A stretch of 59,519 nt of DNA, counting the filler, from Nemertoderma westbladi (Eukaryota; Animalia; Xenacoelomorpha): assembly GCA_032718475.1 (NCBI GenBank). It is 3 parts of 3 records of this genome, joined end to end, with 100 filler letters (N's around TTAATTAATTAA, not from the genome) between each part and the next. Parts side by side here need not be neighbours in the genome. Positions count along the whole stretch, not along the records: positions 29,864 to 59,519 come from JAUCBJ010001726.1; 2 more parts are not named here. One strand, given 5' to 3'. Positions within the stretch are counted from its first letter, which is position 1. Each line of letters starts with the position of its first letter. The notes beneath the pieces were generated by a model. That model did not search any database, was not told where the DNA came from, and saw nothing but the letters and a program-made list of their open reading frames with translations. Below, in pieces: positions 1,239 to 46,841 of this stretch. The position numbers and the translations under genes were made by a program.

Positions 1239-1308
1239 ACTCTTACATACATATTCATTTCTGATTGTTAATTGTGTAGCAGTGTGTATAAGAATAGGGC
1301 TCGCCTAT

Positions 1309-5762: not shown

Positions 5763-6220
5763 AGAGCCGAAACCAATCGAAACTGTCGAAATGGTTGCCA
5801 ATGGAGTCACCAACGGGATGACGGCCGAAGATATTCAATACTCTTTATCTTATGCAATCTCAAATATTCAATGTTTGTTCCCTAGATGGGGCAGTACTGT
5901 TTGGGCACAGTGCTGTAAATGCTGCAGCCTAGCCCAACTCCGGCTTTCATCCTTCAGTGGTCGATTGGGAACCAAGGCAACTTGGGAAACAGAGTGGAAG
6001 GATTTACTATGGAAGATCACCCATGGTGGTGAACAGGCATTCCTTGGCTTAACGAGTCTAAAAGATTCTCCCATTCAAATATTCAATTCGGTACTGTACC
6101 TTCAATTCAATATTCAATCTTAGTATTATTTCTGTGCTTCGTTATTTAATAATGTGATTAGATAAAAAAATAAATTAATGAAATATAATTAATCTGTTAA
6201 TTATTACAAAAAAAATCCAA

Positions 6221-6332
6221 CATTATATTAACATTTATATAGTTTTGAATTAAATGTTTTGAAATCAACAGTCATTCATTATATTAACATTTATATAGTT
6301 TTGAATTAAATGTTTTGAAATCAACAGTCATT
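6221..6332. repeat. Perfect 56-bp tandem duplication
   Basis: CATTATATTAAC...CAACAGTCATT occurs twice in tandem. Confidence 0.95.
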
Positions 6333-7519
6333 CAATGAACTTAAACAGCAGTGTCATATATCGCGTATCCCTTGGTTTAATCACTATATTCAAGTATAAC
6401 TGAATCCTGGCCCACCGCCTTTACCCTCCACTGATAATTTAAAATCGTAACTCATTCAATCTTTGACTAAATTATACCAAACTTGGTAAACATCTAAACA
6501 TGTAATCTTGTCTATCGGCTAAAATAAACACAACTTGCTCAAGTTTCCCCTATAAAGTTTTTTCCTATAGAACAGGATGCATGCAGTTTTATTTTAGTAG
6601 TAAACAAGCTGTTATTTGCGTCGATTTTCACCTGGAGAGGGAAGAATATTGATTGCGCCCCCCCCCCCCCCCCCCCCCCTACCTGCAGTTAAGTGAAAAT
6701 ATTTCGACACATTTAATTTTATTATCACGGTCGCGCATCAAGTAGTCTGTCAAAAGATACAATTCATTATAAACATAACAAAATTAATTATAATAATTCT
6801 AAAAATATAAGGCAGATTTTCCTAAAGTTAGCTCTTTAGTCTTTAGCAATCTTATACATTGACAAGACTTATAAAATAATTGATGTTGAATAATTATTAT
6901 TAAGATTAAAATATATTATTAGGAATTCGAAGAAAGCAAATTGTATTGAGTTAGTATTGGCAAGTTAATCTCACAAACCAGTCTAGTCTAACTTTACAGT
7001 ATCCTTGTTCGCATTGTTCCAGGTTTAGGCCTATAGATTCCACCGTCTTCGTTCCAGGTTTAATACTGTAATAGACTCCGTTATCCGTCTCGATCGCTTC
7101 GCTATGCACCATCTTACTGGGTTTAATAAACTCCATCGCCTTCCTGTCGTTCTCTGTTTTGTAGATTACTTCGCCATCGTCTGATTGCTTTGGTTGCGTG
7201 TTTAATACTGTAATAGACTCCATCGCCATCGTATCGTTCTGGATACATTGAATAGACTCCATTGTCCATCGCGATCGTTTCATTGTTTACGTGTAATTGA
7301 CTCCGTCGCCTCCTCGGATTAGGAATCCGGCCGGGTTTCGTAGATTCCGCCATCGTTCAGCAGTTCAGTGTTTTTAATCAAAGCCAGAATTCCGGCAACG
7401 GCACCACGATCAACGATTTCGGAAGTAACAGACTCCGTCAACAACACTCGGGGTTTAAAAAATACAACTATCGGGCAACTTGTAACTGGGCGATCATCTA
7501 TCTGATAGTTGAAAAAGCC

Positions 7520-9395: not shown

Positions 9396-9744
9396 CCGAC
9401 ACCGAGAGGTAAAAGCATAGGTACAATGTTAATAATCATTATTATCAACGATAATTATTTATTAGTTAATAAATAATCTAAGTTTATTGTATTGGTTAGT
9501 TTTTTAAATAAACAAACCTAACTATAATGGGAGTTTATATACTTTGTTAGAAATAATTATAGGGTGGGGGTTAATATTGTTAGAATTAATTGAAAAAATA
9601 TGTTTTTATTATGGGGGAAGACGGAATAATTAATAATATTAAATCAAAATACACAATAATACTTAATATTAATAATATAATTAAAGTCTGGTTAAGCGAG
9701 ATGGGCATTTATATAATTAAGTAAATCAAACAACACGAAATATA

Positions 9745-11462
9745 TTACGTCATCATTGTTACTGTAACTTTAGGAATATCAAATTGTTTAGAATCTTGGT
9801 TCGTTAACTTCTGACACGATTGCTTTGCTTTTTGTATGGCTGCAACCCAGGCTCCAGCCTGTCTGCTATTAGCGGTCAGAACTGTAAATACCTCTTCAGG
9901 TATCCTATACGTTGTGTTGCTGTACACCAAAAGGAATGTACTCTTATCTTGGAGTTCGTGCAAATGGAGCTGATTCAATATCATTAAGGGTTTAATTAGT
10001 TTTATCTTGTCGTCCCGTTTGGTACTTTTAGAAACTAGGAAAATATCGGTAAATAAATAGCCATAGGATTCAACCTTTCTGGTACCCTCTTTGATTTTAA
10101 ATGGGCCATCCATTAAAATATTGCGTTTTTTCCGCGTGTTTGGGATGGGGTTGATTAAATTAAGTGCGGGATATCTTTTCACAATATCACAAACCTCATC
10201 GCTATAATCAATAATGTTTGGGTAAGATTCAATCTGGGAATTCAATTTCCTCAACACGTGTAACTCTTCATTATTATTAACCTCTTCATTAACTTTACCG
10301 ATAAATACATTAACTTCACTAACAATGTTCTCTAGTATCGAATATTCATCTTTGGTTGCCAATTTTCCCTGCATTGTCTTTAGTAAAAGGGGATACTTAG
10401 TAAGTCTTTGCATTGGTTTAACCATCATATCCGATAGCAGTAGTCTATTACATTCGGGCCAGGATTCGCCCCATTCCACAAACCGTTTAAATATTTCGTT
10501 TTCATTGTAACACATTTTCATGTATTCAATGCTGCTCTGAGCTTGTATACCTTGTTCTATGTAGGGTTGGAAATTTATTTCGAATTTCTTAAACAATTCA
10601 GCAATGAGAATGGCGTCGACACAATTACCTGTCTCGCGACTAACTTCCACTATTTTCTTCATATTAGTCCAAAGATTAATGTGACATTTCCTCACATCCC
10701 TCATATTACTAAAAAGTACTATAGTATCTACTTCCCGCAGTATATTTAGTGAATGCAAATGTTCTAGTGGAGACAAAAATAGATTAATTATTACATCTAA
10801 ATGTCGAATATGCGAGGATTCTGTTGTGAACAATTCCCATAGAGCGGATTGTTGGGTAAACAGTCTCTTACTAAGGTTGCTGGCATCCTCCACAATATCG
10901 GCCCAGTCTCCATCTACGCGCATATCCATTGACGTATCAGGCGTATCAAACATTTCATCTGAACTTCGGGAATTCAAGGTTTTGAAGTTGTTCAGCAGAA
11001 GTTCCAAATGTTTAATTTCTTGCTGCTGCGAGTTTGTCGTTGACGATGTTGCTTTGCTTTTTTCCTTTACACCCGAGGAACCCTTTGAGAAGAGCCGACG
11101 TCTCGCTATAGTTGATATAGAGTTGGACCTAATCTTTGATCTTTGTGGTCCTATTGCTAAATCAGCGACTGATGCTGCCCTGCTTCTGTGAGAGGAGTCT
11201 GGATGCAGCATGTACAGATTATTTGGATTTATCAGAGAATCATAATTAGCAACTTGTGAAATATCGGTGCATGAACTAGATCTGCGATGGCGGGATTTCG
11301 ATTCAACTACAACATCTGCTTTCTTATAAATATTATAAGTGGGCGACCCACTCAATTGGCTTGGCACGCTATCCCATTTCTCCACCACCCCCCTGTCGGA
11401 AGATTCGTCGCATTTATTACTCGCGATGTCGGTGGATTTTTCGTGATTTTCCATCTCGCACC
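9745..11462 (-). CDS. PLEKHG5: RhoGEF DH-PH exon of a PLEKHG5-like gene
   Basis: DH motifs QQSALWELFTTESSHIRHL and LSDMMVKPMQRLTKYPLLL, followed by a PH domain (YLFTDIFLVSK...WVAAIQKA). Proposed acceptor TTTCTGCTACAG ends at 11463; the ORF is open to 11544. Confidence 0.85.
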
Positions 11463-11660
11463 CTGTAGCAGAAACCCTGCAGGTTGGTAAGGAGCTTATC
11501 AGCCAAAATACAGAAGCCAATACGTAAATGAACGCGGCATACATTTATTAAACATGCTTTGTAATGAAAATGTATGTATATGGAATATGGCATATATGTG
11601 ACGAACATCGTGATTCTGTAATGTAATGAATGAATGAAAACGGTACACAATGAACGGTAC

Positions 11661-11729
11661 AGTGCATGCAATGCGGTGCATGCAATGCAGTGCATGCAAT
11701 GCAGTGCATGCAATGCAGTGCATGCAATG
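11661..11729. repeat. 14-bp tandem repeat x5 (AGTGCATGCAATGC) in the putative intron
   Basis: Read directly from the sequence. Confidence 0.9.
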
Positions 11730-11870
11730 AACATACGTGTATCTTATGCATTGAAATACTAGATTTTGATGAATGAGTATATAAATATTGTCGTAGCCCT
11801 ACTCCTACAAACGTATTCGTTTATGATTCTTAATTGTGTAGCAGTGTGTATAAGAATAGGGCTCGCCTAT

Positions 11871-12620
11871 CTAAAATACTTTCAATTTAATTTTGTTTTG
11901 AACCAGTTTTGTCTGATTACTAGGCTTCCTTCCATTACAAGAAATTTCTGCTACAGGGAGATCATGAATAAATATTGGTTTGTCGCCAATATCCAGATCA
12001 TTATCAATCCCATTATCGCTACCTTTGTCGAGAATATCAATACCAATTTCGCAATCTTTGTCGCCATTATCAATACCATTCTCGCTTCCATTGTCAACAT
12101 CATTCCTGCTTGTTTCACAATTATCTATCTCATTATCAATGATGCTGTTGCAATTGGCATCTATGTCGTTGACATAGTCGTCAATGTCAGAGACTTCGAG
12201 AGCATCATCAGTTATCTCTGGTTCGTTCTGTATCATGTGGATTCTTCTACCAGCTAGTAGATTCGTTTTGTAATTTTTTGGCAAAGGGTGCCTTCCATTT
12301 TCCAAATATAATTCAACATTATTAGCTGTAATATTATTATCCAATAGAAAGTTTGCTAAAGCTTCAATCAAATCTAAGTCATTAGCTGGCAGAATTAAAG
12401 TTTCCTGCTTGTCAGGACGTATTATGTTAGAAAAAACCAAAGTGAATTCATTGTAATTTTTCTCTCTTGGTTTCCCCTGGAAGGATTCAGCAAAGATTTC
12501 CTCAATTTCATCCCCACTTGTATTGTTGTCATCAATATCACTTACGCTTTCAGTATCTGCTGTATGACTTTCTGTACGGAGTTGCCACATACTGAATATC
12601 TTTTCCTTTATTTTACTCAT
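11871..12620 (-). CDS. PLEKHG5: Probable first exon of the PLEKHG5-like gene (RBD-like domain)
   Basis: ETLILPANDLDLIEALANFLLDNNITANNVELYLENGRHPLP...LAGRRIHM resembles the N-terminal RBD-like domain of PLEKHG5. Same strand, ~400 bp upstream of the DH-PH exon. Phase-1 donors GTAATG (11938) or GTAATC (11920) join in frame to 11462; the true donor is inferred. Confidence 0.7.
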   Translation of the reverse strand: MSKIKEKIFSMWQLRTESHTADTESVSDIDDNNTSGDEIEEIFAESFQGKPREKNYNEFTLVFSNIIRPDKQETLILPANDLDLIEALANFLLDNNITANNVELYLENGRHPLPKNYKTNLLAGRRIHMIQNEPEITDDALEVSDIDDYVNDIDANCNSIIDNEIDNCETSRNDVDNGSENGIDNGDKDCEIGIDILDKGSDNGIDNDLDIGDKPIFIHDLPVAEISCNGRKPSNQTKLVQNKIKLKVF

Positions 12621-13704
12621 TATTACGTTTCTAAGTTGAAAATCAACTAGGGATAAATAATTGTTCTAATAACATAGTAGTGATAGTAAATAAATATACT
12701 GTTTGAGTGTCAAATAAATTAGTTATTAACGAGAGAAGCCAGTTGGAGAGTGAAAATATTGAAACGAGTACCGAAGTGGGATAAAGGTACTACGTACCTT
12801 ATACTTACTTACAATGGTATTTTTTTTATCATTTATAGACTTACTTATTTTAAATAACCTGAATTTATCGCGAAAAAATGCTTCAATTGTAACATTTTGC
12901 ATTACTGTAAAAAAAGTAAACTTTTCACACTCCCTTATCACTTTAATGCCCCCAAATTGGGTAAAGACCTTTAATGCCGTTAGATCAATTTATTTTATAT
13001 GTACTAAATTACATTTTTATCAGTGTATCAGTGGTTGGTTAAGAGTACCATTAAATAGCCCTAGCATAAGATTAATTTATGGAGACAGGGTAATTGCATG
13101 TATGAAACCCGTTATTTGAGCCAAACTACTGTACACTCAATGTTATTAGTTTCTTATAATGAGCCACAAAGGTTTGCCTTTGTTTCCTACATAATTTAAC
13201 AACAGTCTACCCTTCAAATACAAGTCGGATTTTTCATGCCTATTAGTTACGAATGAATATAAAGCGGTCGTCAGAATAGACAAAGGATTAATTATATAAC
13301 TTAGGATATATTCTACTGACTGAAAATAATTCAATTTCAAGTCCAATGCCAAAAATATGTTTGTTATCGAGTGTACAGTGGCCCTAGTGTATGTATAGCT
13401 AATGAAGGTCTGTGGAATTTGTTACCTGGATTTAAACCGTGTTCCCACTTACCACCTCTATGTTGCTGGCAATTCAACCTCACACTACGGAATTATTCAC
13501 TCTAAAAATGTGTTTATGAGAATCTCCGGTTATAAATTACTTGATGCCGTTAAGTGAACTTCTTGACCTTTGACTTGAAATTAGATATGAACTTGCTCCT
13601 TTCAGTGGCCATCGTGAGTATACCATATATGGGCAATATGTAGTTAATGGCTTAGTACATTTAGTACATTTATTGGTATTGGGTTTCGTTAGTTCTAGAG
13701 CGGT

Positions 13705-21047: not shown

Positions 21048-22937
21048 ATGTCTTCGATTGCTACAGCGTCTCTACAATCTCATCTAGAATTCGATTGGCT
21101 CTTTCTTCGTCGTTTTTTTGTTATTTTTAGGATTACATTTCCTACCATATTTTCCAAAACCGGGATCATCTACGGCTGCCTAATGGCTATGATAATTCTA
21201 GAACAATTTGCTGTATACCACGTGGGCCTTATACCCAGCAAGTATATCAGTTTCTTAGCTAACCCCGTCACAATGCATGGCCACCGAACTGAATTCTATT
21301 CTTTATTAGCTTTATCGACTGCTTTGGTGATTGTCACTTCCATATTGATCTCTTGTAAGACATATATTATGGGTTTAGCTTATATTCAATTTCGCTACCT
21401 GCTATCTGTTCGACTTCATAAAGACTATTTATCAAACTTGCTATATTTTAAATTGAATGTCAGTTTGTTAAACTCGAGTATTGATAATTGCGATCAAAGA
21501 ATTACTCAAGATGTTGAGAGATTCTCCAAAGAGTTGAGCAACTCAATATCTGATTTATTAGTTTCACCTTTCATTATTATTTTTTATTCCTATCAATGTT
21601 TCACAATTACTGGTTTTATTGGGCCATTATCTGTATTTGCCTACTTTGCTTTGGGATCAATTGTAAATAAATGTTTGATGTCTCCTATTGTGAAGCTACT
21701 CTTTAACCAAGAAAAGCTTGAAGGAAATTTCCGTTATCAGCATACAAATCTACGGAAGTATTCAGAACCTATTGCTTTTTATAAATCAGAAAGCACTGAA
21801 GAATTTAAGCTGAATGCCAGATTAATTTCTCTTGTTTCAACTCAACGCAAAATAATTAACCGTGAGCTATTACTCAATATATCAGTGAACTCCTATAATT
21901 ATCTTGGAGGAATATTCAGTTATCTTATTCTTTCAATTTCCGTTATGAATGGTTATTATGACAACCTAAACGCATCTGATTTGGCTGTTTTGATATCTCA
22001 GTATGCTTTTATATCGATTTATTTAATATTTTCGTTTTCAAAGTTGATTAATCTCAGTCTTGCATTTGTTGATATAGCGGGATACACTCACCGCATAGTG
22101 CAAGTGTTGGAAGCTTCAAAGAATAATGTTTATGAATCTAATAGTAGGACTGATAATTGTTTTGATTCTTCCAGCATTCGTCTTAGTGATAGTTCAACTT
22201 TCTTTAAATTACATAGTGTCAGTTATGGTCCACCAAATACAAGCCAACCACTGATCAATGAACTAACAATTTCATTGGCAAGTAAGAAAAATGTGTTGAT
22301 TAAGGGTCCAACTGGGTGTGGCAAATCCTCATTGCTTCGTGTTATCTCAGGACTATGGCCAATTCAAGGAGGTTCTTTACAAAACCACCCTAACATGAGA
22401 GCCGACTCTGTCTTTTATCTCCCACAGGAGCCCTATCTTACAGATGGATCCTTAGCCGACCAAATATATTACCCTAATAACTTCAATGCTGGTAATTTAG
22501 ATGCAGCTACCAACGACGTCATTTGTAACCTACTCAATAATGTTGGTTTGAGTTATTTAATGTCGCGTTTTGGAGGATTAGACACCGATCTTGGGTTTCA
22601 GTGGGCGGTGATTTTAAGTCCTGGTGAATCTCAGCGTTTGTCATTTGCTCGAATGTTGTTCCATAGACCGTTATTGGCACTGTTGGATGAATCCACATCT
22701 TCTGTTGACTTGGATACACAGGACCTTTTGTACAATCTTTGCCACAGCAACGATATAACCTTGGTTAGTGTTGGGCATAAAGTATCTCTGTTGAAACACC
22801 ACCAGGAGTTGCTACAGTTCGATGGGCAGGGCGGGTGGAGTCATAGTGTAATAGATGAAGGACGACCTTCCACAGTCATTAATTCTTCCGTATTATATTC
22901 ATTGTCATTGAATCCGTCAATCAATGATGCTGATTAA
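21048..22937 (+). CDS. ABCD4: ABC half transporter, subfamily D member 4-like (lysosomal cobalamin exporter family), intronless
   Basis: TM domain with DNCDQRITQDVERF and an EAA-like SEPIAFY. Walker A GPTGCGKSS, signature LSPGESQR, Walker B LLDESTS, SVGH. Short N-terminus as in ABCD4. AATAAA downstream. Confidence 0.9.
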   Translation: MSSIATASLQSHLEFDWLFLRRFFVIFRITFPTIFSKTGIIYGCLMAMIILEQFAVYHVGLIPSKYISFLANPVTMHGHRTEFYSLLALSTALVIVTSILISCKTYIMGLAYIQFRYLLSVRLHKDYLSNLLYFKLNVSLLNSSIDNCDQRITQDVERFSKELSNSISDLLVSPFIIIFYSYQCFTITGFIGPLSVFAYFALGSIVNKCLMSPIVKLLFNQEKLEGNFRYQHTNLRKYSEPIAFYKSESTEEFKLNARLISLVSTQRKIINRELLLNISVNSYNYLGGIFSYLILSISVMNGYYDNLNASDLAVLISQYAFISIYLIFSFSKLINLSLAFVDIAGYTHRIVQVLEASKNNVYESNSRTDNCFDSSSIRLSDSSTFFKLHSVSYGPPNTSQPLINELTISLASKKNVLIKGPTGCGKSSLLRVISGLWPIQGGSLQNHPNMRADSVFYLPQEPYLTDGSLADQIYYPNNFNAGNLDAATNDVICNLLNNVGLSYLMSRFGGLDTDLGFQWAVILSPGESQRLSFARMLFHRPLLALLDESTSSVDLDTQDLLYNLCHSNDITLVSVGHKVSLLKHHQELLQFDGQGGWSHSVIDEGRPSTVINSSVLYSLSLNPSINDAD

Positions 22938-25544: not shown

Positions 25545-28433
<2,889 letters not shown>

Positions 28434-29763: not shown

Positions 29764-29863
29764 NNNNNNNNNNNNNNNNNNNNNNNNNNNNNNNNNNNNN
29801 NNNNNNNTTAATTAATTAANNNNNNNNNNNNNNNNNNNNNNNNNNNNNNNNNNNNNNNNNNNN
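29764..29863. other. Artificial contig spacer (N44-TTAATTAATTAA-N44)
   Basis: Identical to the first spacer. Confidence 0.95.
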
Positions 29864-32017
29864 ATATTTCATAACTTGAGGAAATTCGATATGCATTTAC
29901 TACTAAAAGAAGGAATGACCGATAGTTCTAGAACACACTGGAAAATGACTGTAATACCAAAAAACACCGAAACTTATATTCACCTTAAAGTTAGCTTCCC
30001 AATCGATCCGAGTACACCAACAGCCAACGCTAAAGAAAGTATCTCCATTAATTTTCTAGATTCCTATCAGTTTATGACTGCCAGCCTAGATAATCTTAGT
30101 AGTTATCTCACTAAAAATAACAGTAACCTAGCAACAGCCATACCCCATACACTAGCTCAAATGACCCGACTCTACCCCAGCATTAGCGATAACACAATAA
30201 AAAACAAGGGCGTATTCCCATATTCCTACATTCAAAATATTTCAAACCTATACGAAACTACACTCCCCCCATTAGAAAGCTTCTATAATGATCTCAAATT
30301 GGAACAATGTAGCGCAGAAAACTATCAGCGCGCGCTTACTACTTGGGATGAATTAAACTGTCTAACAATCTTCGACTATATGATTGGCTATTTGGTTCTA
30401 GACGTTACCCTATTGGCTGATACTTTCGAGCAGTTCCGATCCCTCTGTCTTACTAATTATGGACTCGAGCCCGTAATGTACTTCACTGCCCCTGGATTAA
30501 CTTACGACGCGGCGCTGAAATTCACGCAATCAGAAATTCAATTACTATCAGACGCTTCCATCTACTCGGACTTTGAAACAAATATTAGGGGTGGTCTAGT
30601 ATTCTTGAATACACATTCCGTAGACGCAAATATCCCCGATAAACCCGACTATGACTCCAGTCTCCCCGAGAAATATCTAATTCCCATCGATGCGAATAAC
30701 CTTTACGGCTGCGCCCTGAGCCAGAAACTTCCCTACGCTAATATTAAACTCGTAACTACCCCCATAGACCTAGCTACAGTAGACGCGAGTGGGGATACTG
30801 GTTATTATTGCATAGTTGATCTACATTATCCGAAAGAAATTCATGATTTGACCGCCGATCTGCCTCTAGGAGCGGAGAAGATGTCAGTCCCTAAATCCTT
30901 TCTTAGCGAATACATGGAAGATCTTTGGGAGCATTACAATCTCACCGATACAGCTAGCTGTAGACCATACAACGATACCTGTACTAAGCTACTACTACAT
31001 CAGTTTAATAAGGTTGAATACGGTATCCATATTAAGCTACTTCAACTCTATTTGAAGCTCGGTCTTAAACTTACACAAGTACATAGGGTCTACTCTTTCT
31101 CACAAAAATATATTTTCAAGGACTACATTAGTTTTAATACAAATAAAAGACAGTCGGCAAATAACCCATTCGAGGTCCTATTTTATAAGTTGATGAACAA
31201 TGCCTTGTATGGGAAATGCCTCCAAAAGGTTAGAGACCGCGTTTCTTTCAGGTTATGCAATAGCGACGAGCAATGCGATTTGCTCTTAGCCAAGCCCAAT
31301 CACGAATCGTTTGTTGTATTTACCCCCAACTTGAGTGGTCATACTTTCACTAAAGAGGCTGTTTGCCTAAATCAGGGCGTGTTCATCGGTTGCACTATAC
31401 TAGATCTATCTAAGCTACAGATGTACGACCTATTTTACAACAAACTGAAGCCTCTAGAACAAAAACTGGATTGCCAGATTCGCTGTCTAGCCGGTGACAC
31501 GGATTCTCTAATGCTAAGCGTAACTAATACACCACAGCTAACCTTTCTACGGGCAATGTTTGAGGGTGGTTTCCTAGATACTTCCAACTACAGTACAACA
31601 CATCCACTCTATACCATTAAACACAAAGCGGCTCTCGGCTTCGTAAAAGATGAGAGCTGCGGTTTGCAGTATAAACAGTGGGTTTTCCTTAAACCAAAGG
31701 TCTACAGTTTTCACTCCTATGATGCCCCAATCAAGAAAACCGCCAAAGGTGTATCTAGATCGGTTGTCGCTAAGCAACTAACACACGAGGATTATGCAGA
31801 CTGTTTTGTAAACGAGGCAATGCTCTTCCGCTATAACTCTACCTTCACTTCTAGAAAGCATCAAATTTTTACTGGTCATGTCTATAAGAAGGCACTAACG
31901 CTCTGGGATACGAAATCATATTGGAGTAGTAAATATAGCAGCAAACCATATGGACACTATAGCACTAAGCTTGTTAGACCGGCGAAACGAGTAGTAATCC
32001 CCCCTACTAGAATTTAA
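29864..32017 (+). CDS. polB: Protein-primed family B DNA polymerase (Polinton/adintovirus type), 5'-truncated by the gap
   Basis: ExoII FHNLRKFD, FLDSYQFM, KGVFPYSY, ExoIII Y...DVTLLAD, IRGG, motif A DANNLYG, motif B YKLMNNALYGK, motif C GDTDS, KKTAKGV. No stops. Confidence 0.95.
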   Translation: MFHNLRKFDMHLLLKEGMTDSSRTHWKMTVIPKNTETYIHLKVSFPIDPSTPTANAKESISINFLDSYQFMTASLDNLSSYLTKNNSNLATAIPHTLAQMTRLYPSISDNTIKNKGVFPYSYIQNISNLYETTLPPLESFYNDLKLEQCSAENYQRALTTWDELNCLTIFDYMIGYLVLDVTLLADTFEQFRSLCLTNYGLEPVMYFTAPGLTYDAALKFTQSEIQLLSDASIYSDFETNIRGGLVFLNTHSVDANIPDKPDYDSSLPEKYLIPIDANNLYGCALSQKLPYANIKLVTTPIDLATVDASGDTGYYCIVDLHYPKEIHDLTADLPLGAEKMSVPKSFLSEYMEDLWEHYNLTDTASCRPYNDTCTKLLLHQFNKVEYGIHIKLLQLYLKLGLKLTQVHRVYSFSQKYIFKDYISFNTNKRQSANNPFEVLFYKLMNNALYGKCLQKVRDRVSFRLCNSDEQCDLLLAKPNHESFVVFTPNLSGHTFTKEAVCLNQGVFIGCTILDLSKLQMYDLFYNKLKPLEQKLDCQIRCLAGDTDSLMLSVTNTPQLTFLRAMFEGGFLDTSNYSTTHPLYTIKHKAALGFVKDESCGLQYKQWVFLKPKVYSFHSYDAPIKKTAKGVSRSVVAKQLTHEDYADCFVNEAMLFRYNSTFTSRKHQIFTGHVYKKALTLWDTKSYWSSKYSSKPYGHYSTKLVRPAKRVVIPPTRI

Positions 32018-32031
32018 TTTTATTTTTCTAG

Positions 32032-32547
32032 AATAAGAAATTGAACAACAAAATAGAAATAACCAATAAACAGTTTACCGGAAAAAACATTGCCAAATTT
32101 GAACTAGAGAAAATTTCACAGCAAATTACAGGTCAAAGATGCTTAAAACCAAACATGTTTATCTACAAAGGTGACGATTCAACTATAATGCTATTTCCCA
32201 GCGGCGCGGTAACAATTGTAGGCCTGTGCAATAATTTAGCTAGTGAATTGCTTTATTTAAAACAAACTATCGATATGCAATTACAAAATTTGAACCTTAA
32301 TACCGAAACACGAACTATTATTTTTCCAAGTGTTAATTTTAAATTATTAATGAAAAAATGTGGACATCGTACAATTAATAATAAAGCAATATTTATTAGC
32401 TATACCCCTGAATTATTTTGCGCGATTAGAATATATATAGGACGTGCATATTTCAGTGTATTTCATAGTAATAAAATTGTTTCCATGTGTCCTGCCGGTG
32501 AATTCCCCGGATCATTATCTATTTTACAAACTTTATTATTAAATTAG
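32032..32547 (+). CDS. Divergent TATA-box-binding-protein-like protein
   Basis: Two TBP repeats by eye: ITN..KFELEKI..STIMLFPSGAVTIVG (TBP LQN..KLDLKTI..TTALIFSSGKMVCTG) and ISYTPELFCAIRI..FSVFHSNKIVSM (TBP SSYEPELFPGLIY..LLIFVSGKVVLT). Length is about one TBP core. No N-terminal ATG; the frame opens right after TTTATTTTTCTAG. Confidence 0.8.
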   Translation, partial: NKKLNNKIEITNKQFTGKNIAKFELEKISQQITGQRCLKPNMFIYKGDDSTIMLFPSGAVTIVGLCNNLASELLYLKQTIDMQLQNLNLNTETRTIIFPSVNFKLLMKKCGHRTINNKAIFISYTPELFCAIRIYIGRAYFSVFHSNKIVSMCPAGEFPGSLSILQTLLLN

Positions 32548-32589
32548 TTTATTTACTATGGTATACATGAAAGTTTACTATATTATTTA

Positions 32590-33130
32590 TTTTGTGTTGG
32601 TTTTTATTTTTCCGTGAGTAGGGTTTGAATCCGTGACCATCCGTGTTACCCACTTTTTATAATTGCATTAGTAGGATTCGAACCCTGGTTTAACTTATTT
32701 TGTGTTGGATTTATAATGGTCGCGAGTAGGGCTTGAACCCGTGACCAGCTGTTTTTCCTATTTTGTGTTTACTTTTTATATTTTACCATAAAACGGGATA
32801 CGAGAAGGGGTCGAGCCCGTGACCTTCTGTTTTTCCTATTTTATGTTTAGTTTAGTTACTCTAGTTATTTTATGTTTAACTTATTTTGTGTTGGTTGTAT
32901 ATTGGTCGCGAGTAGGGATTGAACCTATAACCTCCTGTTTATTTTCCATAAAACGGGATACGAGTAGGGATCGAACATGTGACCACCTGTTTATCCTATT
33001 TTATGTTTAGTTTAGGTACTCTAGCTATTCTATGTTTACTTTTTATATTTTCCATAAAACGGGATACGAGAATGGGTCGAACCTATGACCATCTGTATAT
33101 CCTATTACATGTTTAGTTAGTTACTCTATG
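32590..33130 (-). repeat. Array of seven tRNA T-arm/B-box-like motifs in modular repeats
   Basis: Minus-strand units such as GGTCACGGGTTCAAGCCCTACTCGCGACCA at about 32613, 32670, 32717, 32794, 32903, 32954 and 33060. Confidence 0.75.
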
Positions 33131-34888: not shown

Positions 34889-35308
34889 TTAAAACTTACA
34901 CCATGGTTCCTCCCTGAAATCTTCTGTTTCCTCCCAGTTTTCCTGGGGAAAGGGATGTTTATACCTGCTCTCCTCAGCCGCCGCTATCTCTTCCTCGAGA
35001 AATTCTTGATACAAATATTGATCGTACCAGTTGGAGGAGGTCCGAAGTCGCTCCAACCTCTCCTCCTCCAATGCTCGAATCTCGAGCTCCCGATCAAACA
35101 AATCTTCCTCCCACGCCATTTCCTCTTCCTGGTCCCTCATAAAACGGCCATAGGGAGTTACCGCTTCCGACCTGCTCTCCGTGGTCTGCGTACCAATGCT
35201 TCTGGATGTGATGGTGATGGTAGCGTTGGATATGGTGGTGACGGGTGTAGCTGTGGTGGAGACCGGTGTCACGGAGGCGGCTAGCTGGGTGCTGGTGGTG
35301 GAAGCCAT
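34889..35308 (-). CDS. 139-aa orphan protein: Thr-rich N-terminus, TQT motif, acidic/aromatic C-terminus
   Basis: GC-richer than its flanks, ATG in ATCATGG context, TATA/Inr upstream, AATAAA just after the stop. Confidence 0.75.
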   Translation of the reverse strand: MASTTSTQLAASVTPVSTTATPVTTISNATITITSRSIGTQTTESRSEAVTPYGRFMRDQEEEMAWEEDLFDRELEIRALEEERLERLRTSSNWYDQYLYQEFLEEEIAAAEESRYKHPFPQENWEETEDFREEPWCKF

Positions 35309-35786: not shown

Positions 35787-36440
35787 GAAATTTTCAGGAA
35801 TTTTAAATTTTGGCCGTCGCTTCACGGAAAAAATAAAAAGTAAACACAAAATAGGATATACAGATTGTCATAGATTTGATTCCCTACCCCCGACCAGGGT
35901 CATTATGACCCTCCCCCCGGTGTTTGTACAACATTTTATAGGCCGGTAGTATTGGGGTTATTATGTGACTCATGAAAATAAATCTTAAATACAATACAAA
36001 TGCTCCATCTGGGTAAAAGTGGATGCAATGTATTTACAAATCGAGTGTGGATCAGGATAGTTTTCGTTAAGGTTTCACCTTGGTGAAGTGGAAGCATTGT
36101 ATTCACATTTCGAGTACCATTTTTATTGAAACTATGGGGCATTTTATATTAGCCGATTTTTCAAAATTTGTAAAGTTTTGAGGGTTTTTATGAAAAATAT
36201 AGGGATTTAGGGATTATCATTCAAATTGACTACAAAGAAGGCATAGGGATCATTAATGGTGTGCTGAGACTCAGAAATTTTCAGGAAATTTAAATTTTTG
36301 CCCTCGCTTCGTGGAAAATATAAAAAGTAAACACAAAATAGGATATACAGATTGTCATAGTTTCGATTCCCCACCTCGATCGGGGTCATTATGACCCTCC
36401 CCCCCGATATTTATACAACATTTTATAGCCCGGTAGTATT
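35787..36440 (+). repeat. ~165-bp direct repeat pair (35787-35953, 36274-36440)
   Basis: Similar copies, each with the unit seen inverted in the 32.6-33.1 kb array and the palindrome GGGTCA-TTA-TGACCC. Confidence 0.85.
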
Positions 36441-37601: not shown

Positions 37602-39293
37602 TCAGAGAATAACTGGTTTAACCCTTTTAGGGTCCGATACTATTAATGGTTGCGATAATTTTCTCTTTAATAGATTGTTGAGATACCCTTTTCTTGGGGG
37701 GTGAGATAGATTAAGGTGTGTTTGCTGCGGGAGAAATATGCCTTCTCTGAGAGAACGTTTTAGTAATTCGAAAAGGCGCGCGATGGTAAAGTCGTTGGAT
37801 AGGGTGATAGTGTTGGTATTTTTCGTATTGGTGAATATAATTTCTGCTGGTTTGTTCTCGATATGAATGTAAGGACTGAGATAGTAGTGAGAGTTGGGTG
37901 GGTTGGTTATATTTATCGCGAGAAAATCACTGCCCCTAATATTGAGACCGTTGGTGAACTGAAAAGTGGTATTCTCTTCGTCTTTCATTAAAATGGGCCA
38001 GATACCAACATATTTTTCGGATTTGAACTTATAGATAAAGGCTGCGATACTGCTATTTATGAGATAGCGCTGGTGATTGGGGATTGTAATCTGCTTCGGT
38101 TTGAAAGCAAATTGTATAGCCATAGCCTTGAATCTGATTAGAGCCTCGCGCGCTTGAATTGTGTTAGCTATAGTAAAGGATTCGTTAAATTTTCTCTCGG
38201 TTATCTGTAAATCAATTTCTGAATCGCTGATACAACTTTGTAACGATATTCGCTCGGAAATGTTGTCTTTGTATACGTTAAGTTCATCGTAGCAGACACA
38301 TTCACTATCCTCGACGGTTGAATCGAACCATTTCAATTCGCCGACCTCGGTTGGTGTAAGAAGAATCATACCCCTAGAAGAAACAATAGCCTTTCCATCG
38401 TCAACCTCGTAGCCATTGGTGATCGCTAAATTGCGCTCGTTCCGAATATTTGTAACAAACCCAAAAGTGCAATAGTCAAAAGCAACCCAATTTCCCGGTT
38501 TTAGGACAAGGTGAGTAGTAGGATTAATAAAAGGGCGACAGATGTTTACATATTGTTGAAATAAATTGGCGCAGGCGACGGAAAATGTGATCCATGAACT
38601 GTTTACCGTGTCTTCCAGCTTTATTAACTCGAGTGGTTTCACTGGGTTAATACTTCCATAGGTGCCAACTCTATAATTGAATCCAAAGTAATAGGAGACT
38701 TTATTGGCGAAAAAGCATGTGAGCTCATTCAATTTCTCGCCGAAAGCGAGAACATCCTTGTCGAAAAGTTTAAAGAAACGAGTCTCCTCTTCCTCGGTCG
38801 GAGTCGACGAGTTCCAGATGAGAAGAAGAATCGAGTTTGCGATACTATGAAAATCAAATAAGCGATCATCGGAGAAGAAGGAGGTTACGAGAGTGGTTAA
38901 ACCCAGTAGACGATTTGCCACATCTTGGTTGATGTTTTCTCGAATAAAATCGACTATACTAGTTGGAATCGTAAACGTCTCGGGCGAAGTAGTTAGATTG
39001 AACGTGATTTTGTTGTCCCTTTTTAAAAGTTTGAAACCGTGGTTGGAGGAATGAAGTTTATTATCGTCGAGGGTTTGATATTGTCCATCGTGAAGTTCGT
39101 AGCAGGCGCGGAAAATAAAGTGCGCGTAGTTTGCCGGAATCGGGATGGGTTGGTTTAAGGTTGTATTTATCGTTAACGGGAAGAGTTTGTTCGCCGAATC
39201 GAAATATAGACCAAACGAGTTGTCTTGTAGCATAAACTGATTTTCGTTGCAAACCAGATCGTTGCTTGAATAGCTGATTTCTGAATGTGCCAT
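37602..39293 (-). CDS. 563-aa orphan protein with a C-terminal bipartite NLS-like motif
   Basis: Uninterrupted 1.7-kb ORF; KRKLSQPLIVSDPKRVK at the C-terminus; no family recognised. Confidence 0.85.
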   Translation of the reverse strand: MAHSEISYSSNDLVCNENQFMLQDNSFGLYFDSANKLFPLTINTTLNQPIPIPANYAHFIFRACYELHDGQYQTLDDNKLHSSNHGFKLLKRDNKITFNLTTSPETFTIPTSIVDFIRENINQDVANRLLGLTTLVTSFFSDDRLFDFHSIANSILLLIWNSSTPTEEEETRFFKLFDKDVLAFGEKLNELTCFFANKVSYYFGFNYRVGTYGSINPVKPLELIKLEDTVNSSWITFSVACANLFQQYVNICRPFINPTTHLVLKPGNWVAFDYCTFGFVTNIRNERNLAITNGYEVDDGKAIVSSRGMILLTPTEVGELKWFDSTVEDSECVCYDELNVYKDNISERISLQSCISDSEIDLQITERKFNESFTIANTIQAREALIRFKAMAIQFAFKPKQITIPNHQRYLINSSIAAFIYKFKSEKYVGIWPILMKDEENTTFQFTNGLNIRGSDFLAINITNPPNSHYYLSPYIHIENKPAEIIFTNTKNTNTITLSNDFTIARLFELLKRSLREGIFLPQQTHLNLSHPPRKGYLNNLLKRKLSQPLIVSDPKRVKPVIL

Positions 39294-39944: not shown

Positions 39945-40280
39945 GGTGTCACTTATGACACCCTCTTGAGCCGGCTCTGTGACACTTGGACCTAACTGAT
40001 GACCCATTGTGTGTCAGGGCGCTAATCAGTCTGATTAATTAGGATAATCAATTAAACCCTAATTAGGAGTCATATGACACCTGTTAGGGTTTAATTGTAC
40101 TAATTAATTGATGACACCTGTCAATTAGGGTCTAATTAGCCTAATTGGGAGGTGTCACCCAGACAGTCTGGCGCCAATGACACCCAATGACACCCATAGG
40201 GTGATAATTGGGTGTCATATGACACCCAATGGGTGTCAGTGAGGTCCAAGTGTCACAGAGCCGGCCAAGACCCTACTACT
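39945..40280. repeat. Putative terminal repeat of the Polinton-like element; fold-back structure
   Basis: Perfect 24-bp inverted repeat 39970-39993 / 40242-40265, many TGACACC/GGTGTCA and TAATTA palindromes inside, ends CTACTACT. Confidence 0.7.
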
Positions 40281-41099
40281 GAGATATCTTGATTTTGGGA
40301 TCTGTCTCCCCTTCTACAAAACATGTTTTAAACATACCCCTAAGACAGCTACAATACCTGTGCCAATATATCTGTGAGACCCTTTTTGATAAAATAATTT
40401 AATGTTACAGCCTCCAGATGTAGTACTCCAATCTTTTTGACACAAATTTAAAGTTAAATAAATCAACTAGTTAAAATTATTTAACTTTTTGTAAATATAT
40501 CAGGGAGCGTGTGAGCTGCCTCCCCCTCAATGCCCCCCCGGACAGCGCAAGATCCTCAGCGCTGATGTACTGTCGCCGCTGTGCCTCTCGCCAACGTAGT
40601 AGCTACACAACGACAACAATAACCAGCGCGAGTCACTCCACTGTCCGTCCCAAGGGCTTAGAATTACTTCAGGTTCTTGCTACAGAGGTAGGGTAACTTT
40701 CACAACTGCGACTCGCTACTGTAAACACACTTTAGTAGTAACATTTTTTAGCAATATCATTTTCGAAATTCATATGATTTTCAAATTCAAATGGGATGTA
40801 ATAAATAATAAAAAATGTTGTCGGTATTCCAGTACACAATAATCCGCTCCTATGTGTAATCGGACGTAATCCGAAATACACATAACAGACACTGGAATAT
40901 CGAGCAATAGAACACCACAGTAAAATAAAGTACACTTTATTTTACTTTGTCTTCTTGGAGGTTTTTACATTTCCTATCTCATATAATTTGTGGGAAGTAT
41001 AATCACTGGGTTTTTTAAAGATTTTGTAGTCTCCAGTCTGACAACGTGACTCTTCTAATAAAACGAGATGTTGCACTGGTCTAGTTACTACATGTTTGT

Positions 41100-44000
41100 C
41101 TATAGTGTTCTAACTGTCACAGTTCGAACTGTTCCGTCTGATCCTGGATGAACCGCTATTACAACACCTGTTAACCAGTGACGCCGTTTTAGGTTCGCCT
41201 CGGCTAAGAGAACAGAATCTCCTTTACAAAGATTCCTTGTTGTTTGATACCATTTACTTCTGGCTGAAATAGTGGGCAAATAGTGTTGTCGCCATATTTC
41301 CCAGAAGTTATCTGCTAACAATTGTACGATTTTCCACGCTTTCCTGGAGTACAGATCGCTGTCATCTGGGACAGAGATTGGTACAAGTGGTGCGGGGGAT
41401 TGCATTAATATATGGTTTGGTGTCAGGGCAATAACGTTGTCTGACCTGTCTGGCACCAGTGCAATCGGTCGAGAATTCAAAGTATACTCGATCTCTGTGA
41501 AAAGAGTCACTAGTTCATCGTCTGTGAGTACTTTGTTCGGTGGGATGGTCTTATGGAACGCCAATTTTATGGATCGTATAAGACGCTCCCAGCTACCGCC
41601 TCTCCAGGGGCTGTCAGCCGTGTTAAAGTTCCATGTGATACGACTGGGTATTAATTCGGCAGCAATTTTATCATGGTCAATAGTATTAAGAGATTTATTA
41701 ATCTCGTTGTCCCCACCGACAAAGTTCGTACCTTGGTCACTATAGAAAGCCTGAACCAACCCGCGTCTGGCTATGAACCGACGCAAAGCAAGTAATAAGG
41801 CATTTGTGGACATGTCTGTGACGCGTTCAATGTGTACCGCACGGGATGCCATACAAATGAATATGACACCCCAACGTTTTACCATCGACCGTGCACGCTT
41901 TGTGAGGATTGGACCAAAACAATCCAGTCCCGTATGGGTAAATGGTGATTGGTGTGACTGCACTCTAGCTAAGGGTAGTTCACTCATTTGTTGCTGGGTA
42001 ATGCGTGCGTTCAACTTTTTACAAACTATACAGTTTGATAGAACTGTATTTAATGCCTTTGTTGGTTTTATTAAAATAAAACGTTGTCTTAACAAAGAGA
42101 TGCAATGTGAACGGCCAGCATGTTTCAGCTTCAAGTGAGCATCCCATATCATGGCGCATTGTAATTCTAAGTATGCCGGGATTATAATTGGATATATGAA
42201 GTCTCGTGCTAGGTCTGTAGCTTGTAATCTAGACCTGTGACAAAGCAGTCCTTTGTGTATGGTCGGGCTCAACCTGACTAATGGGGAAGAAGTAACCGCT
42301 TTCTTAATCATAATGGCGTTGTACTCACGGGTGTAACTTCGCAGCTGAAAATGAAGGATGATCTTCAATTCCGCCTGGTCTATTTCCTCGATAGATAGTC
42401 TCCTGGGAAATCCTCTAATAACCCTTTGTCTCCAATCAGATAGTGAGTATTCCTTTGATTTACCCAAGAATTTACTAAGTCTACTGATCCAAGCGGCTTT
42501 CCTACATAGCTTTAGCCAAGATGAACTGGAATTTACTAACCTGTCAAAGAAATTCCTTAAATCACTGTTAAGTGGTTGTGTTACCATAACATTAGGCGGT
42601 GGCTGTGATGCCACACTTTTTACAAGATCTTGCTTACTATTGGTCAAGGGTGATTCTAGAAATATCGCTTTTACTTCATCGAATTTTTCATCACCAGGAA
42701 CTGGATGCATGTCATTATATTCATCGTCGTCTGATATATCTAGGGCTAGGTCAACTTCGGACTCAATCTCTAAATTAATATCTGAATCTGGCGGATTTGG
42801 CGGTGGTAACGACGCAGGAACTATATCACTTGTATGTGTCACTCGCGATCTTAGATTATATAATGTGGTACGGGACGTAATCTCATTTGTGTCTAACATC
42901 TGTTCACTCATGGCATTTCTCGGCCGCTCCATATAATTATTTGACATTACCTGATCAGTCAATGATGTTGGTATATGGGATAAACCTGTGGCCTTCGCCT
43001 TTGACTTCTTTACTTTCTCGATCTTAATCTCCGCTTCCTCTAGACTCATACCTAAACCAAACTCCTTATTATCTTCTATTGATCTGTTTACATAATGTCC
43101 AGGTTTAGTTCGTTTAAAACCTACTATAAAGTCCTTTGGTGACCTGGTATACCAACCTAAAATGGTTCGAGTAGCATAGGGCTTACCTGGTTGAGGTGGA
43201 TGTGGCCTAGTATCCCACGCATGATGAGCATCAAAGACATCTAATCCGATCAACATTGCAATATTTCTATAGTTAACATTACATTCCGGGATACCTAAAC
43301 ATCCGAAGTATTCTCGTTCTTGTTTAGTCAAAGCAGGCACTCCCCCCAAAAGTCCAGAAAATTCTTTCAAAGCAATGAAGGATACATTCTTTATTGGTAG
43401 TAGACTTTGTTCTGGTAGAGTGTGATGATTTCGTGGTAATAAGGAATCTAATGAGAGGTTTATCGATTTACCATTTAGTTCTCCTTGTCCATGCATAGAT
43501 CCTAAATCGATCTTACGGCTCTTCGCACTCAAAGTGTCCGTAACAGCGCTGGCTACTTCTAAATCTACATAGCTACGGGTAGAGGCAGGATCTAGTATGA
43601 CATAAATTCTCTTCGTTCCATGTTCTCCAATAATCTTAATGGGAATTACGCTAAATGAAGCAGATTGTACTGATGTAAGGTATGTATTTGCACATATGAT
43701 GTCATCAATATTAGTGGCATCAGTTTCTCCTACCTGACACTCATCCTTTTCATCATCCTCATCTGAAGAACCGGATTGATCAGCATTGACTGAAGCAAAT
43801 GTAACCTTATTTGGGATTGGGTTAGGATTTCTAGCAATCCTACTTGGATGGTCCATGATATATTGTTTTGTAGGAGTGTGCTGACTAGTATGTAGCAACC
43901 GATGATGCAACCTACCACAATCTTGGCATCCTTTCTTTATGGTGTCTGGACATTCTCGGCGTTTATGACCAGTAGAAAGACACTTCCAGCATGCATCTAA

Positions 44001-46841
44001 AGATCGTATTGCCAGTCTTCTCTTATCGACGTCGAGTTTTGTAAAGAAATCGCAACAATGCAATTTATGATCCATATGTTTTTGAGATTGCTGATAACAA
44101 TATTGGCAACCGCGAAAGTTGGAGGGCAGCTCCTGACGCTCCAGGGTCACTCCTATGGGGGCTGAAACTTTACTCTTCTCCAATTGGTATCGCGATTTTG
44201 ATATATTCGAGTCAGTCCCAGTTGGTCCTAAAGTGTTGTAGGTTAGACACGTCCCCTCTGTTGTCATCAAGGATTTAGGTTTTGCTATTGAGCGCCTTTC
44301 AACCTGTAAATATTCTTCAGAGTAATTTGAACGGGAATCTGCGAGTGCTTCTCTAGCGATTAACTCATGTAAGTGTCGTAACTTTAAAGTCTCTCCACGT
44401 TCTTCTATTTTGCTCTCTAATTTCCGCCACTTTTGACGATGACGGTAACTTAACCTTCTAATTATATCTTTCAAGATGTCTGGTCTATCTCCATAGTTTT
44501 CACAACCAATATCCGGTAATATTGATATTGCATTCTTTATTTCATCCGCTAGTTTTAATAATTCATGAGATGTAGAAATAGGACCACCTTTTCCAAGTTC
44601 ATCTACAATGGATTGAGCCACCCTGGTGTTACTTCCATATACAGAGGTTAATCGCTCATAAGTAAGCTGAAATGCATTTGGGTTTCCTGTAAAAGTCCCA
44701 GCTAACCCTCTAGGTTCCTTCTGTAGTAGTTGTAACAGGTAATTGAATTTCTCATTTGAACTGAAATCCTTTTCTTTTATTTGGGAGTCAACATAATTTA
44801 TAAAGGTGCGCCAATGTTTTGCATTACCATTAAAACGTGGAGGTTGTTGGGTTGGCAGACTCTGGCGAGCAGCAAAGCGAGCAATTTCGGTAAGGACAGC
44901 CGTAGTCTCTGTCTGTTTTTCCTTCTCCTTCACCAAACTAGATTTATTTCCTCTTTGAAATTCTCTACAGAAACTGCTAGAAGAGCTCTCAACAACCTCG
45001 GAATATAAATTTTGCTGTGGGGTTGAACGACGCTGTGCATACGTCGAATTGAAGTGAATCTTCTTTGACAAACTTGGCTCTCTAACTGGATTTTGTGATA
45101 TTTCCTCCATTTCTGAATCAGTTTTTAAGTTTCTCCGGACTGGTGTGTCCATCCAATCAACTTTTTCTTGAACTTCCTTCAGTTGTTGTAGTAAAGGTGC
45201 ATTGCATTCTTGCATAGCAGCTTTCATTTGCTCAATTGAAACCTTCGGTTCTATGGGAGTCTCAAAATCAAATAGATCGAACTTATCGGCTCTGTGTGAA
45301 TGTTCCCAATTCTGTGAGTAGGGCTCATCGCCACCAGTTCTATACCTCTCCCGAGATCTATTACCATAATGATACCAAGGATTCTGGGGAAGTAGATATC
45401 TTTCCCTACAAACGAAACATGGGCAATCTCTTTCATGAGGCTGTGGTCTGTGCTCGCCCTCACATTGCCAACGTTCGTCTACAAATTTGTCTGGGGTATA
45501 CAGCGGTTGGAAGGGTTTCTCGTATGGCTTTGTCTCAGGCTTCCTCACTATGTTCTGGTTTAGTCGAGGAATGGGTCGTTCTTGGTGAACTTCTTGTGCT
45601 CTCCTGCCCTTATGCAATGACGATACATATGCTTCTGTTAGAGGGAACCTTCTTTGGGCGGACTCACATATGATTGGAGCTTCCTCCACTTGGTCTATAA
45701 TACTACTGTGCTCTTCTTCATACTGCTGCCTATCATTTACCAACTCAAGCCGTGCATCCTGCAACTGAGCTCGCTTATGTTCCATTTCAATCTCATGGAT
45801 ACGCCTTCGTTGCTTTAATTCTAATTCTCTTCGCTTTTCGTCTACTTGTGCGCGTCTCTGTGCATGTTGATGCTCTAAATTTGCCGCTGCTTCACGCTGT
45901 TGCCTCTGCAATTCATCACGCAAATGCTCTGCTTCTTGGGCTGCAGCTTGTGCTTCACACCTAAATTTAGCTGCTGCTTCCTCATGCTGCTCTTGCTGCT
46001 TTAAATCTGCTTCTTGTGCTGCTAATTTATGTATCTCCTCTTCAGCGAGTTCAACTTCCTGCCTACGCGCTTCCTCTACTTCGAGCTTTCTCTCTTCAAC
46101 TGCAATTAGTCTATCTCGTTCTGTGAACGCTCGCAGGGCCTTTTGTGATTCTGTTATCGAACTTCGACTACTTACTACACTCGTACTTCGTCGCGACCTT
46201 GTTGTGCTTTGGCTGGCAACAGATAAAACTTCCGCTCCACTGTTTAACCCACTCACTGTCTCTTGGTTTGCAGTTAATGGCAATGGTAATCCAATGATAA
46301 CTACTCCTCTCTTACTTAAGTAACGGGTTAATTTAGTAACTCGATGCTGAGTCTCAACCACAATACGTTCCTCTGATTCTCTAAACTCGACTTCATTGAC
46401 TGTTAGAGATTCACAAACTGCTTCGCTCCATCGTGTATTACGAATTTGGGAAAAGTGTTCAATTACTCTTATATAACTCACTCTTGCCTTTTTCAATTTC
46501 TCGAATAAGAAAGTCAGGGTTTTATTCTCTTGATATTTTTCTGCTCTATCCACAAGAGCTTGTAGTTCAGCTACTGGATGGATCATCTGGGTGTTAAACT
46601 TACCTTGTAACTCCAAAAGTTTTTGTCTGTCTAATGTAGCACCCTCTTGTAATAATAATGTAATTACCTTGTTTGTGCACTTTGTAATTTGTGCCATATA
46701 CCCACCAGCACTCCTACTTATCGGTGGCCCTCTTTGTGAATCTAAACTACTTACTCTCACCACCTCCTCTATTTCGTCATCGTTTGAGTCAGAACCTACT
46801 AGAGTTATGTCCTGTATAGTCGATGTCCTATGTATACTCAT
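41100..46841 (-). mobile_element. BEL/Pao LTR-retrotransposon polyprotein (Gag, Zn knuckles, protease, integrase) lacking RT/RNase H
   Basis: Gag PPRFNGNAKHWRTF, three Cys/His knuckles, protease ILDPASTRSYV, integrase HHCC, TGLDCFGP, SDQGTNFVG, GGSWERLIRSIK, FWEIWRQHYLP. A terminal frameshift precedes RPVQHLVLL. Confidence 0.92.

Follow-up and report, generated by a model that had tools for sequence, protein, structure and literature searches.

The 59,519-nucleotide (nt) stretch of the Nemertoderma westbladi assembly GCA_032718475.1 analysed here (the window) consists of three contigs with artificial N-linkers between them. Its third contig, JAUCBJ010001726.1, which begins at position 29864, opens within a gene for a protein-primed DNA polymerase B (pPolB) that is followed on the same strand by a short frame resembling the TATA-binding protein (TBP), and then by an array of degenerate repeats (Table 1).

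Table 1. Features of the pPolB–TBP locus and its surroundings, in window coordinates.
Feature	Position	Strand	Basis
Artificial N-linker between contigs	29764–29863		DNA to the left is unrelated
Alpha-type Polinton/adintovirus pPolB, cut at its 5' end	29867–32017	+	Pfam PF03175, homologues, intact catalytic motifs
14-nt spacer, pyrimidine tract ending in TAG, acceptor-like, in phase 0 with the TBP frame	32018–32031	+	Sequence
Divergent mini-TBP frame, no ATG before codon 42	32032–32547	+	Pfam, ESM Atlas, family profile, model and Foldseek
Seven-unit array of degenerate repeats; every unit contains a B-box-like word of RNA polymerase III (Pol III) type	32621–33083	-	Word scan, alignment
Orphan open reading frame, 563 amino acids, intact, multi-copy	37602–39293	-	Depth of the same order as pPolB

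The polymerase frame of 716 codons matches Pfam PF03175 (E = 7.7e-17), and its catalytic motifs are intact, with DANNLYG, KLMNNALYGK and GDTDS all kept. It has 656 homologues at E ≤ 1e-20, of which the 120 listed are 33–42% identical to it; a Parasteatoda adintovirus PolB, at 36% identity, belongs to them. By these matches it is a PF03175-class pPolB of the Polinton or Alpha adintovirus type, polymerases of this class being termed Alpha in PMC8502044. A motif at residue 2 of the frame lies at residues 482–569 of six homologues; this offset and the contig edge at 29864, a product of the assembly, indicate that the 5' part of the gene, encoding ~480–570 N-terminal residues, is missing here. Because the edge falls inside pPolB, the rest of the element lies outside the window. 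A tblastn search with the open reading frames (ORFs) of 36 loci found no integrase, ATPase, capsid or protease gene in the window, the contig opening inside pPolB, and what supports the assignment to Polintons is therefore the polymerase, together with read depth and the relatives described below. At most one end of the element can lie in this contig; the repeat array is found 3' of the TBP frame, and no terminus was fixed.

A sequence-only reading of this locus had proposed that a same-strand ORF of ~170 amino acids (aa), 14 nt past the pPolB stop, aligns with both halves of TBP, keeps three of the four DNA-intercalating phenylalanines and reads YTPELF at the TFIIB-contacting stirrup, and each of these observations was borne out. 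The stop-to-stop frame has 171 open codons, a length reached in none of 2000 shuffles of the surrounding 1 kb, and MLF, ELF, SVF and YTPELF are all present. The Pfam TBP family (PF00352) matches the protein with E = 0.0011 and 19.3 bits, below the gathering score of 22.9, and all 30 of its ESM Atlas matches are TBP clusters (top score 0.95). Its sole match among 1.84 billion representatives was P0003, a protein of 153 aa that passes Pfam TBP, and a profile of three sequences (the window protein, P0003 and P0124) retrieved only TBPs from the PDB (35 of 35 matches, best E = 8e-13). When a profile was built from 62 archaeal TBPs and one giant-virus TBP, it scored the window protein at 10.3 bits over profile positions 8–158, with both repeats collinear, against 7.5 bits for the best of 1000 shuffles. 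Single-sequence searches with the protein gave no match in PDB sequences, a set of 5.8 billion proteins, viral contigs or PHROGs.

An AlphaFold model was computed on a 48-sequence alignment containing 41 of the 62 extracted archaeal TBPs; another alignment was dropped because the central part of the query had been shifted in it by an insertion of archaeal origin. The model (predicted local distance difference test, pLDDT, 84.5; predicted template modelling score, pTM, 0.64) has five strands and two helices in each repeat. As had been supposed from the sequence, Foldseek recovered the TBP fold from this model, with TBPs in ranks 1–44 as listed (TM 0.66–0.79, 14–19% identity to solved TBPs), and viral TBP-like proteins were matched too. 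Together, profiles and fold identify the 171-codon frame as a TBP homologue with a predicted two-repeat saddle. The TBP core of hosts is strongly conserved, and the low identity therefore argues against a recent copy of host TBP, in agreement with the sequence-only reading. A fusion with pPolB by frameshift or readthrough was excluded, as the two frames differ and stops lie just upstream in the TBP frame, and so was a frameshift near the TBP C-terminus, where the other frames close within ~25 codons.

Several key residues of the saddle are changed and others are kept; yeast numbering, where used, follows Table 1 of PMC12529657 for residues listed there. In the window protein F55, F129 and F144, the three intercalating phenylalanines that are kept, and N12 are invariant in all 48 aligned TBP-family sequences; in yeast numbering, the invariant positions are N69, F116, F190 and F207. 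The first intercalating Phe is most likely replaced by Lys39, judging from the hairpin register of the model and from the relative P0003; one alternative alignment places F43 in that column. At yeast F99, Lys is likely in the window protein and in four relatives, and P0003 has Phe. The second base-reading Asn (yeast N159) pairs with N86, N90 or T93, depending on the alignment. The stirrup and the Pro191 region read YTPELFCA, where one of the two TFIIB-contacting Glu is kept and Pro has become Cys, and four hydrophobic positions of the DNA face are polar or basic (V71>Q, V122>T, I194>R and L205>S, yeast numbering). The protein lacks an N-terminal extension, and its helix 2 contains a single basic residue.

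Similar proteins were found elsewhere, and the resulting mini-TBP set comprises the window protein, P0003, P0124/P0128 and the proteins of loci L001 and L002, which are 144–171 aa long and amount to four independent sequences; P0003, P0124 and the L001 and L002 proteins pass the Pfam TBP cut-off. Cys-Ala stands in place of Pro191-Gly192 in all six mini-TBPs and in none of the 42 canonical TBPs aligned, which likewise lack the polar substitutions of the window protein. All five relatives have Arg at position 122 and Asn at position 205, where the window protein has Thr and Ser, and Arg occurs at position 194 in five of the six. Both stirrup Glu are kept in all five, the YEPELF stirrup being the best-kept motif. 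With a profile of four relatives, built without P0001 and P0003, the window protein reached 42.3 bits and the best shuffle 10.6, compared with the 10.3 bits from the canonical profile.

The gene context of two of these relatives places them on Polintons. A metagenome scan for mini-TBPs confirmed two of 23 pattern matches, the near-identical L001 and L002, in both of which the gene order is TBP, packaging-type ATPase, a 97-aa ORF, a zinc finger and an rve-chromo integrase. The ATPase–integrase block is the same as in L129, a 12.3-kb element (positions 1–12321) with terminal inverted repeats, pPolB, an A32 ATPase, an integrase, an adenoviral-type protease and no TBP, and L001 ends in the start of an ORF similar to the post-integrase gene of L129. 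(L129 also contains, at 11376–11885 on the minus strand, a weak match to PC4, a coactivator and single-stranded DNA-binding-like protein, with E = 0.003.) With the L001 and L002 genes in this block, the mini-TBP family is Polinton-borne in two independent elements, so that carriage by a Polinton-type element, as supposed for the window, is upheld by both the PF03175 polymerase and the relatives. Conservation of the tight coupling to pPolB that had also been proposed was not supported. In these two relatives TBP precedes the packaging ATPase, and the 238–263 nt upstream of the L001 and L002 TBP genes contain an acidic frame instead of pPolB. Moreover, 32 related pPolB loci taken from viral contigs (385 kb, with many of the loci partial) yielded no TBP-like ORF in a search that recovered five of five controls, and TBP is therefore best seen as an accessory gene of variable position whose adjacency to pPolB is not conserved.

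Comparison of the L001 and L002 TBP genes gave a dN/dS (ratio of non-synonymous to synonymous substitution rates) of 0.33, from small counts of 9 non-synonymous and 7 synonymous changes, and three neighbouring genes gave 0.05–0.22, also from small counts. In viral contigs, neither a motif scan nor a scan with a profile of three sequences turned up a mini-TBP, and a scan with five sequences yielded nothing but L004, a TBP-like gene of a giant virus. One relative had no match among phage records.

The pPolB/TBP element is dispersed and multi-copy. Four sequencing runs from four studies were compared as contigs, for which depth is a rough guide only to copy number. Contigs over pPolB and over the TBP frame had depths of ~1200–1900 and 1600–2100 in runs X1 and X2 (~6–50 for divergent contigs) and of 56 and 72–118 in run X4, such that the depth of the TBP frame equals that of pPolB in three DNA runs. 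The pPolB–TBP junction is bridged by the window's own assembly and by none of the listed run contigs. Among 40 of the 375 rows of differences between the window and the run contigs, three lie in the TBP frame and seven in pPolB, with two synonymous changes in each.

How the TBP frame begins is a separate question. Homology and the model of the window protein both start near codon 8, and the relatives have their Met 3–6 residues before the invariant Asn; a start at the codon-42 ATG would remove strand 1, helix 1 and the invariant Asn12. Ten of the 11 bases before the TAG that opens the frame are pyrimidines, and at least 10 are found at only 19 of the 1751 YAG sites of the contig. The spacer may thus serve as a splice acceptor, although such a tract could also stem by chance from T-rich spacers. 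A frame that lacks an early ATG and has an acceptor-like front would therefore be cis-spliced, trans-spliced, translated from a near-cognate, non-AUG codon, or a decayed copy. For flatworms, PMC9851317 describes spliced leaders that terminate in AUG and are able to provide the initiator; by analogy, a leader of that kind could conceivably give the TBP frame its start. Run X5, whose identity as RNA is a guess, gave no cover over most of the TBP frame.

Candidate promoter elements were sought in the relatives and in the window. The word TATAAAC lies 31–49 nt before three of six starts in L001 (positions 731, 1389 and 3309) and two of five in L002 (759 and 1395), compared with two of 327 in TBP-less loci, one of these two being at 5598 in L129; the starts that it precedes are those of the ATPase and the virion module. 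Behind the TBP frame of the window, seven minus-strand B-box-like matches fall within 463 nt, including all three perfect matches of the window, whereas 32 TBP-less control loci have at most two such words per 500 nt. The repeat units resemble the 3' halves of tRNAs and two end in CCA, with no convincing A box by eye; tRNA and Rfam searches of the array gave no match. A public contig (X4 record 18) covers 32276–32707 without gaps and joins the TBP frame to the first repeat units. Inverted relatives of the unit at 35818–35883 and 36305–36370 could belong to a second element copy, as its opposite end. The array probably represents the element's subterminal repeats, but its units may instead be insulators or unrelated to TBP.

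The sequence-only reading had regarded the pairing of pPolB with TBP as possibly undescribed, which proved to be true in part. The legend to Fig. 5 of PMC8502044 (Starrett 2021), as well as its preprint, lists a 'TBP' gene among viruses with an adintovirus-like PolB; in the text searched of that paper the term occurs once, as this label, with no analysis. Literature searches for the pairing returned only that legend, and figures or supplements may name more TBP-bearing elements; neither TBP nor TATA is mentioned in PMC10748475, PMC11161782, PMC8097293, 10.64898/2026.06.19.733378 or 10.64898/2026.10.13.758929. The eight vertebrate Maverick core genes described in PMC8097293 do not include TBP and are intronless. 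What is new here is the layout of a TBP frame that lacks an initial ATG and is fronted by an acceptor-like site, together with the B-box-like repeat array behind the gene.

We favour the interpretation, to which we give a probability of about one in two, that the TBP homologue carried by this multi-copy Polinton-type element acts as the element's own promoter-recognition factor. Such a factor, with a private transcription programme for the element, and a decoy of host TBP were the two roles suggested by the sequence-only reading, and the choice between them is still a matter of inference. In the favoured case the mini-TBP would dock on a TATA-variant box and bring host TFIIB, together with RNA polymerase II, to the genes that the element carries. 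A DNA specificity altered from that of cellular TBP is suggested by the four DNA-face substitutions and by the Cys at P191, the residue that fixes the first TATA base. Host TFIIB would be recruited through the YEPELF-type stirrup, as suggested by its conservation (both Glu in all relatives, one of two here), and the lack of an N-terminal extension and the single basic residue in helix 2 point to an escape from TFIID-type control. Late virion genes would be the targets, by analogy with herpesvirus ORF24. Splicing at 32031, in cis or in trans, or a near-cognate codon would provide the start; otherwise this copy would be defective. When a small nuclear DNA virus that has no RNA polymerase retains a TBP whose DNA face is re-coded and whose TFIIB stirrup is kept, the simplest use for it would be to steer host RNA polymerase II to the virus's own promoters. 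In a more ambitious form, which we consider unlikely, a lineage of animal Polintons would control its own early-to-late switch by means of a viral TBP smaller than any other known, a bare re-coded saddle still able to dock host TFIIB; in the present element the gene would gain its start through host splicing at the acceptor that follows pPolB, perhaps from a spliced leader with a terminal AUG, as in flatworms.

Several observations weigh against a promoter-recognition role. The ESM Atlas recognition value of the window protein (1849) is below the guide value of 2300, and AlphaFold on three sequences only gave no confident model (pLDDT 33.8); because the larger input alignment is rich in TBPs, mostly archaeal, the model obtained from it is partly circular and speaks for compatibility rather than as independent proof. 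A common origin of the mini-TBPs is likely but falls short of shown, because the four-relative profile scores a giant-virus TBP at 47.1 bits and because the tree, built without eukaryotic cellular TBPs and with nesting within host TBP outside its scope, gives the group a support of 81/59 on long branches and neither shows nor rejects it. The first ATG of the frame, at 32155, is codon 42. One stirrup Glu and Gly210 are changed, and one Phe and the Pro are lost, whereas ORF24 needs all four Phe and the Pro, according to PMC12529657. As TBP is missing from all 32 related pPolB loci, elements of this kind get by in its absence. TATAAAC is a nearly canonical TATA box, and the complete, TBP-less L129 has it at −42 of its ATPase with the same spacing. 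In the window, TAAGA at 32034 was rejected as a signal and means little, because it also precedes 32 of 327 TBP-less starts, and the virion genes of the element and their promoters are outside the window.

The best-surviving alternative, though improbable, is that the protein is a decoy that binds TFIIB or other TBP partners, or blocks TATA boxes, and so damps host transcription or defence. Such a role would fit a protein whose TFIIB-facing stirrup is best kept while its DNA face has drifted, which has lost one Phe and P191, and whose gene is accessory. However, Asn12 and the three kept Phe do not vary, and changes in the DNA face are shared among the relatives (Arg122 and Asn205 in five of five), which suggests a new specificity rather than decay; the stirrup of the window copy is itself short of one Glu.

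Ranking after the decoy, and doubtful as well, is the explanation that the frame is a passenger, an old captured TBP in decay from which no protein is made in this lineage. The missing ATG at its 5' end would then need no remedy, and this origin would also suit the longest end branch of the mini-TBP group (4.8), the changes at otherwise fixed positions and a guanine-cytosine (GC) content of 0.30 compared with 0.41 in pPolB. Yet the 171-codon frame is unbroken, its depth equals that of pPolB in three DNA runs, two of the three listed differences from run contigs are synonymous, a rare acceptor-like site falls exactly at the frame edge, and the relatives are under purifying selection. Least probable is a role at the element's end, either with host TFIIIC on the B-box array (yielding small Pol III RNAs or insulating the provirus) or in bending terminal DNA for protein-primed replication by pPolB. 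TBP does adjoin pPolB here, and seven B-box-like words, a density above that of all 32 TBP-less loci, begin 74 nt past its stop and are contig-linked to it. These words, however, are copies of one repeat unit and not independent, and neither an A box nor a match to tRNA or Rfam accompanies them; the surface to which Brf1 binds in TBP, helix 2, has no basic patch; and in L001 and L002 the TBP gene sits beside the ATPase with no B boxes in the short flanking DNA.

A promoter-recognition factor of this kind would have counterparts among known systems. The element shares with Alpha adintoviruses and animal Polintons (Mavericks) a PF03175 pPolB, multiple copies in an animal genome, and relatives with an ATPase and an rve integrase; it differs from vertebrate Mavericks, whose core genes are described as intronless, in that its TBP frame may be spliced. 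Like ORF24 of KSHV (the herpesvirus associated with Kaposi's sarcoma), a viral TBP (vTBP) of the beta- and gamma-herpesviruses, the mini-TBP is a TBP fold in a virus with no RNA polymerase of its own and its DNA-binding face is polar, Ser standing at L205 (PMC12529657). According to the same source, ORF24 differs in its 752 aa, its Pol II-binding and extra DNA-binding domains and its five partners, and it keeps the four Phe and the Pro but has no TFIIB-contacting acidic residues, whereas in the ~170-aa saddle of the window the stirrup is retained, and the Pro and one Phe are gone. The multidomain layout of ORF24, BcRF1 and UL87 was not found in the window frame, which by its model is a saddle only; at most the mini-TBP works like ORF24, and it is not a member of the herpesvirus vTBPs. 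With cellular TBP and TRF and with giant-virus TBPs it shares the two-repeat saddle, Asn69, Phe116, Phe190, Phe207 and YxPELF; from the cellular proteins it differs in its Pfam score below the cut-off, its bare N-terminus and its low identity to solved TBPs.

Other features of the window are of interest in their own right. The 563-aa orphan ORF possibly belongs to the same element family, as two runs contain a joint of low depth between opposite strands (31565/38286) that connects it with pPolB in some copy; it had no match in Pfam, PHROGs, PDB, ESM Atlas or viral contigs, and like pPolB it ends in a basic motif resembling a nuclear localisation signal. A very high-copy unit of ~300 nt at 39970–40281, with 30-nt inverted arms (39970–39999 and 40236–40265), ends in CTACTACT, which resembles the (ACT)n terminus of Polintons, and may be a miniature inverted-repeat transposable element or a non-autonomous derivative. 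At 34889–35308 (minus strand) lies a 139-aa Thr/Glu-rich ORF of high third-position GC content (GC3) and moderate depth, with a TATAAA-type word ~120 nt upstream and no family match. A BEL/Pao-type retrotransposon ORF of 1913 aa (DUF1759, integrase, DUF5641) occupies 41100–46841 on the minus strand and may be internally deleted, as Pfam reported no reverse transcriptase domain. Three host genes are single uninterrupted ORFs, at 9745–11544 (minus strand; RhoGEF-like by eye), 21048–22937 (plus strand; an ABCD-type transporter) and 25548–28433 (plus strand; a KH-DEAD helicase), which suggests an intron-poor animal genome. Near-identical ORF-bearing segments at 1309–2022 and 11871–12665 (minus strand) lie 10.5 kb apart and are 97% identical over 300 nt.

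In conclusion, the mini-TBP family amounts to a natural mutagenesis of TBP, one that drops a Phe and Pro191, never lost in cellular TBPs, and keeps the TFIIB stirrup. Polintons have no RNA polymerase of their own, and a self-encoded TBP, if its proposed role is true, would give them a concrete switch for the timing of gene expression and the making of particles. TBP mimicry, known from herpesviruses and giant viruses, would then extend to integrating viruses of 15–20 kb. A start codon gained through splicing would, if true, be a novelty among elements reported to have intronless genes, and would tie the switch to the RNA processing of the host.

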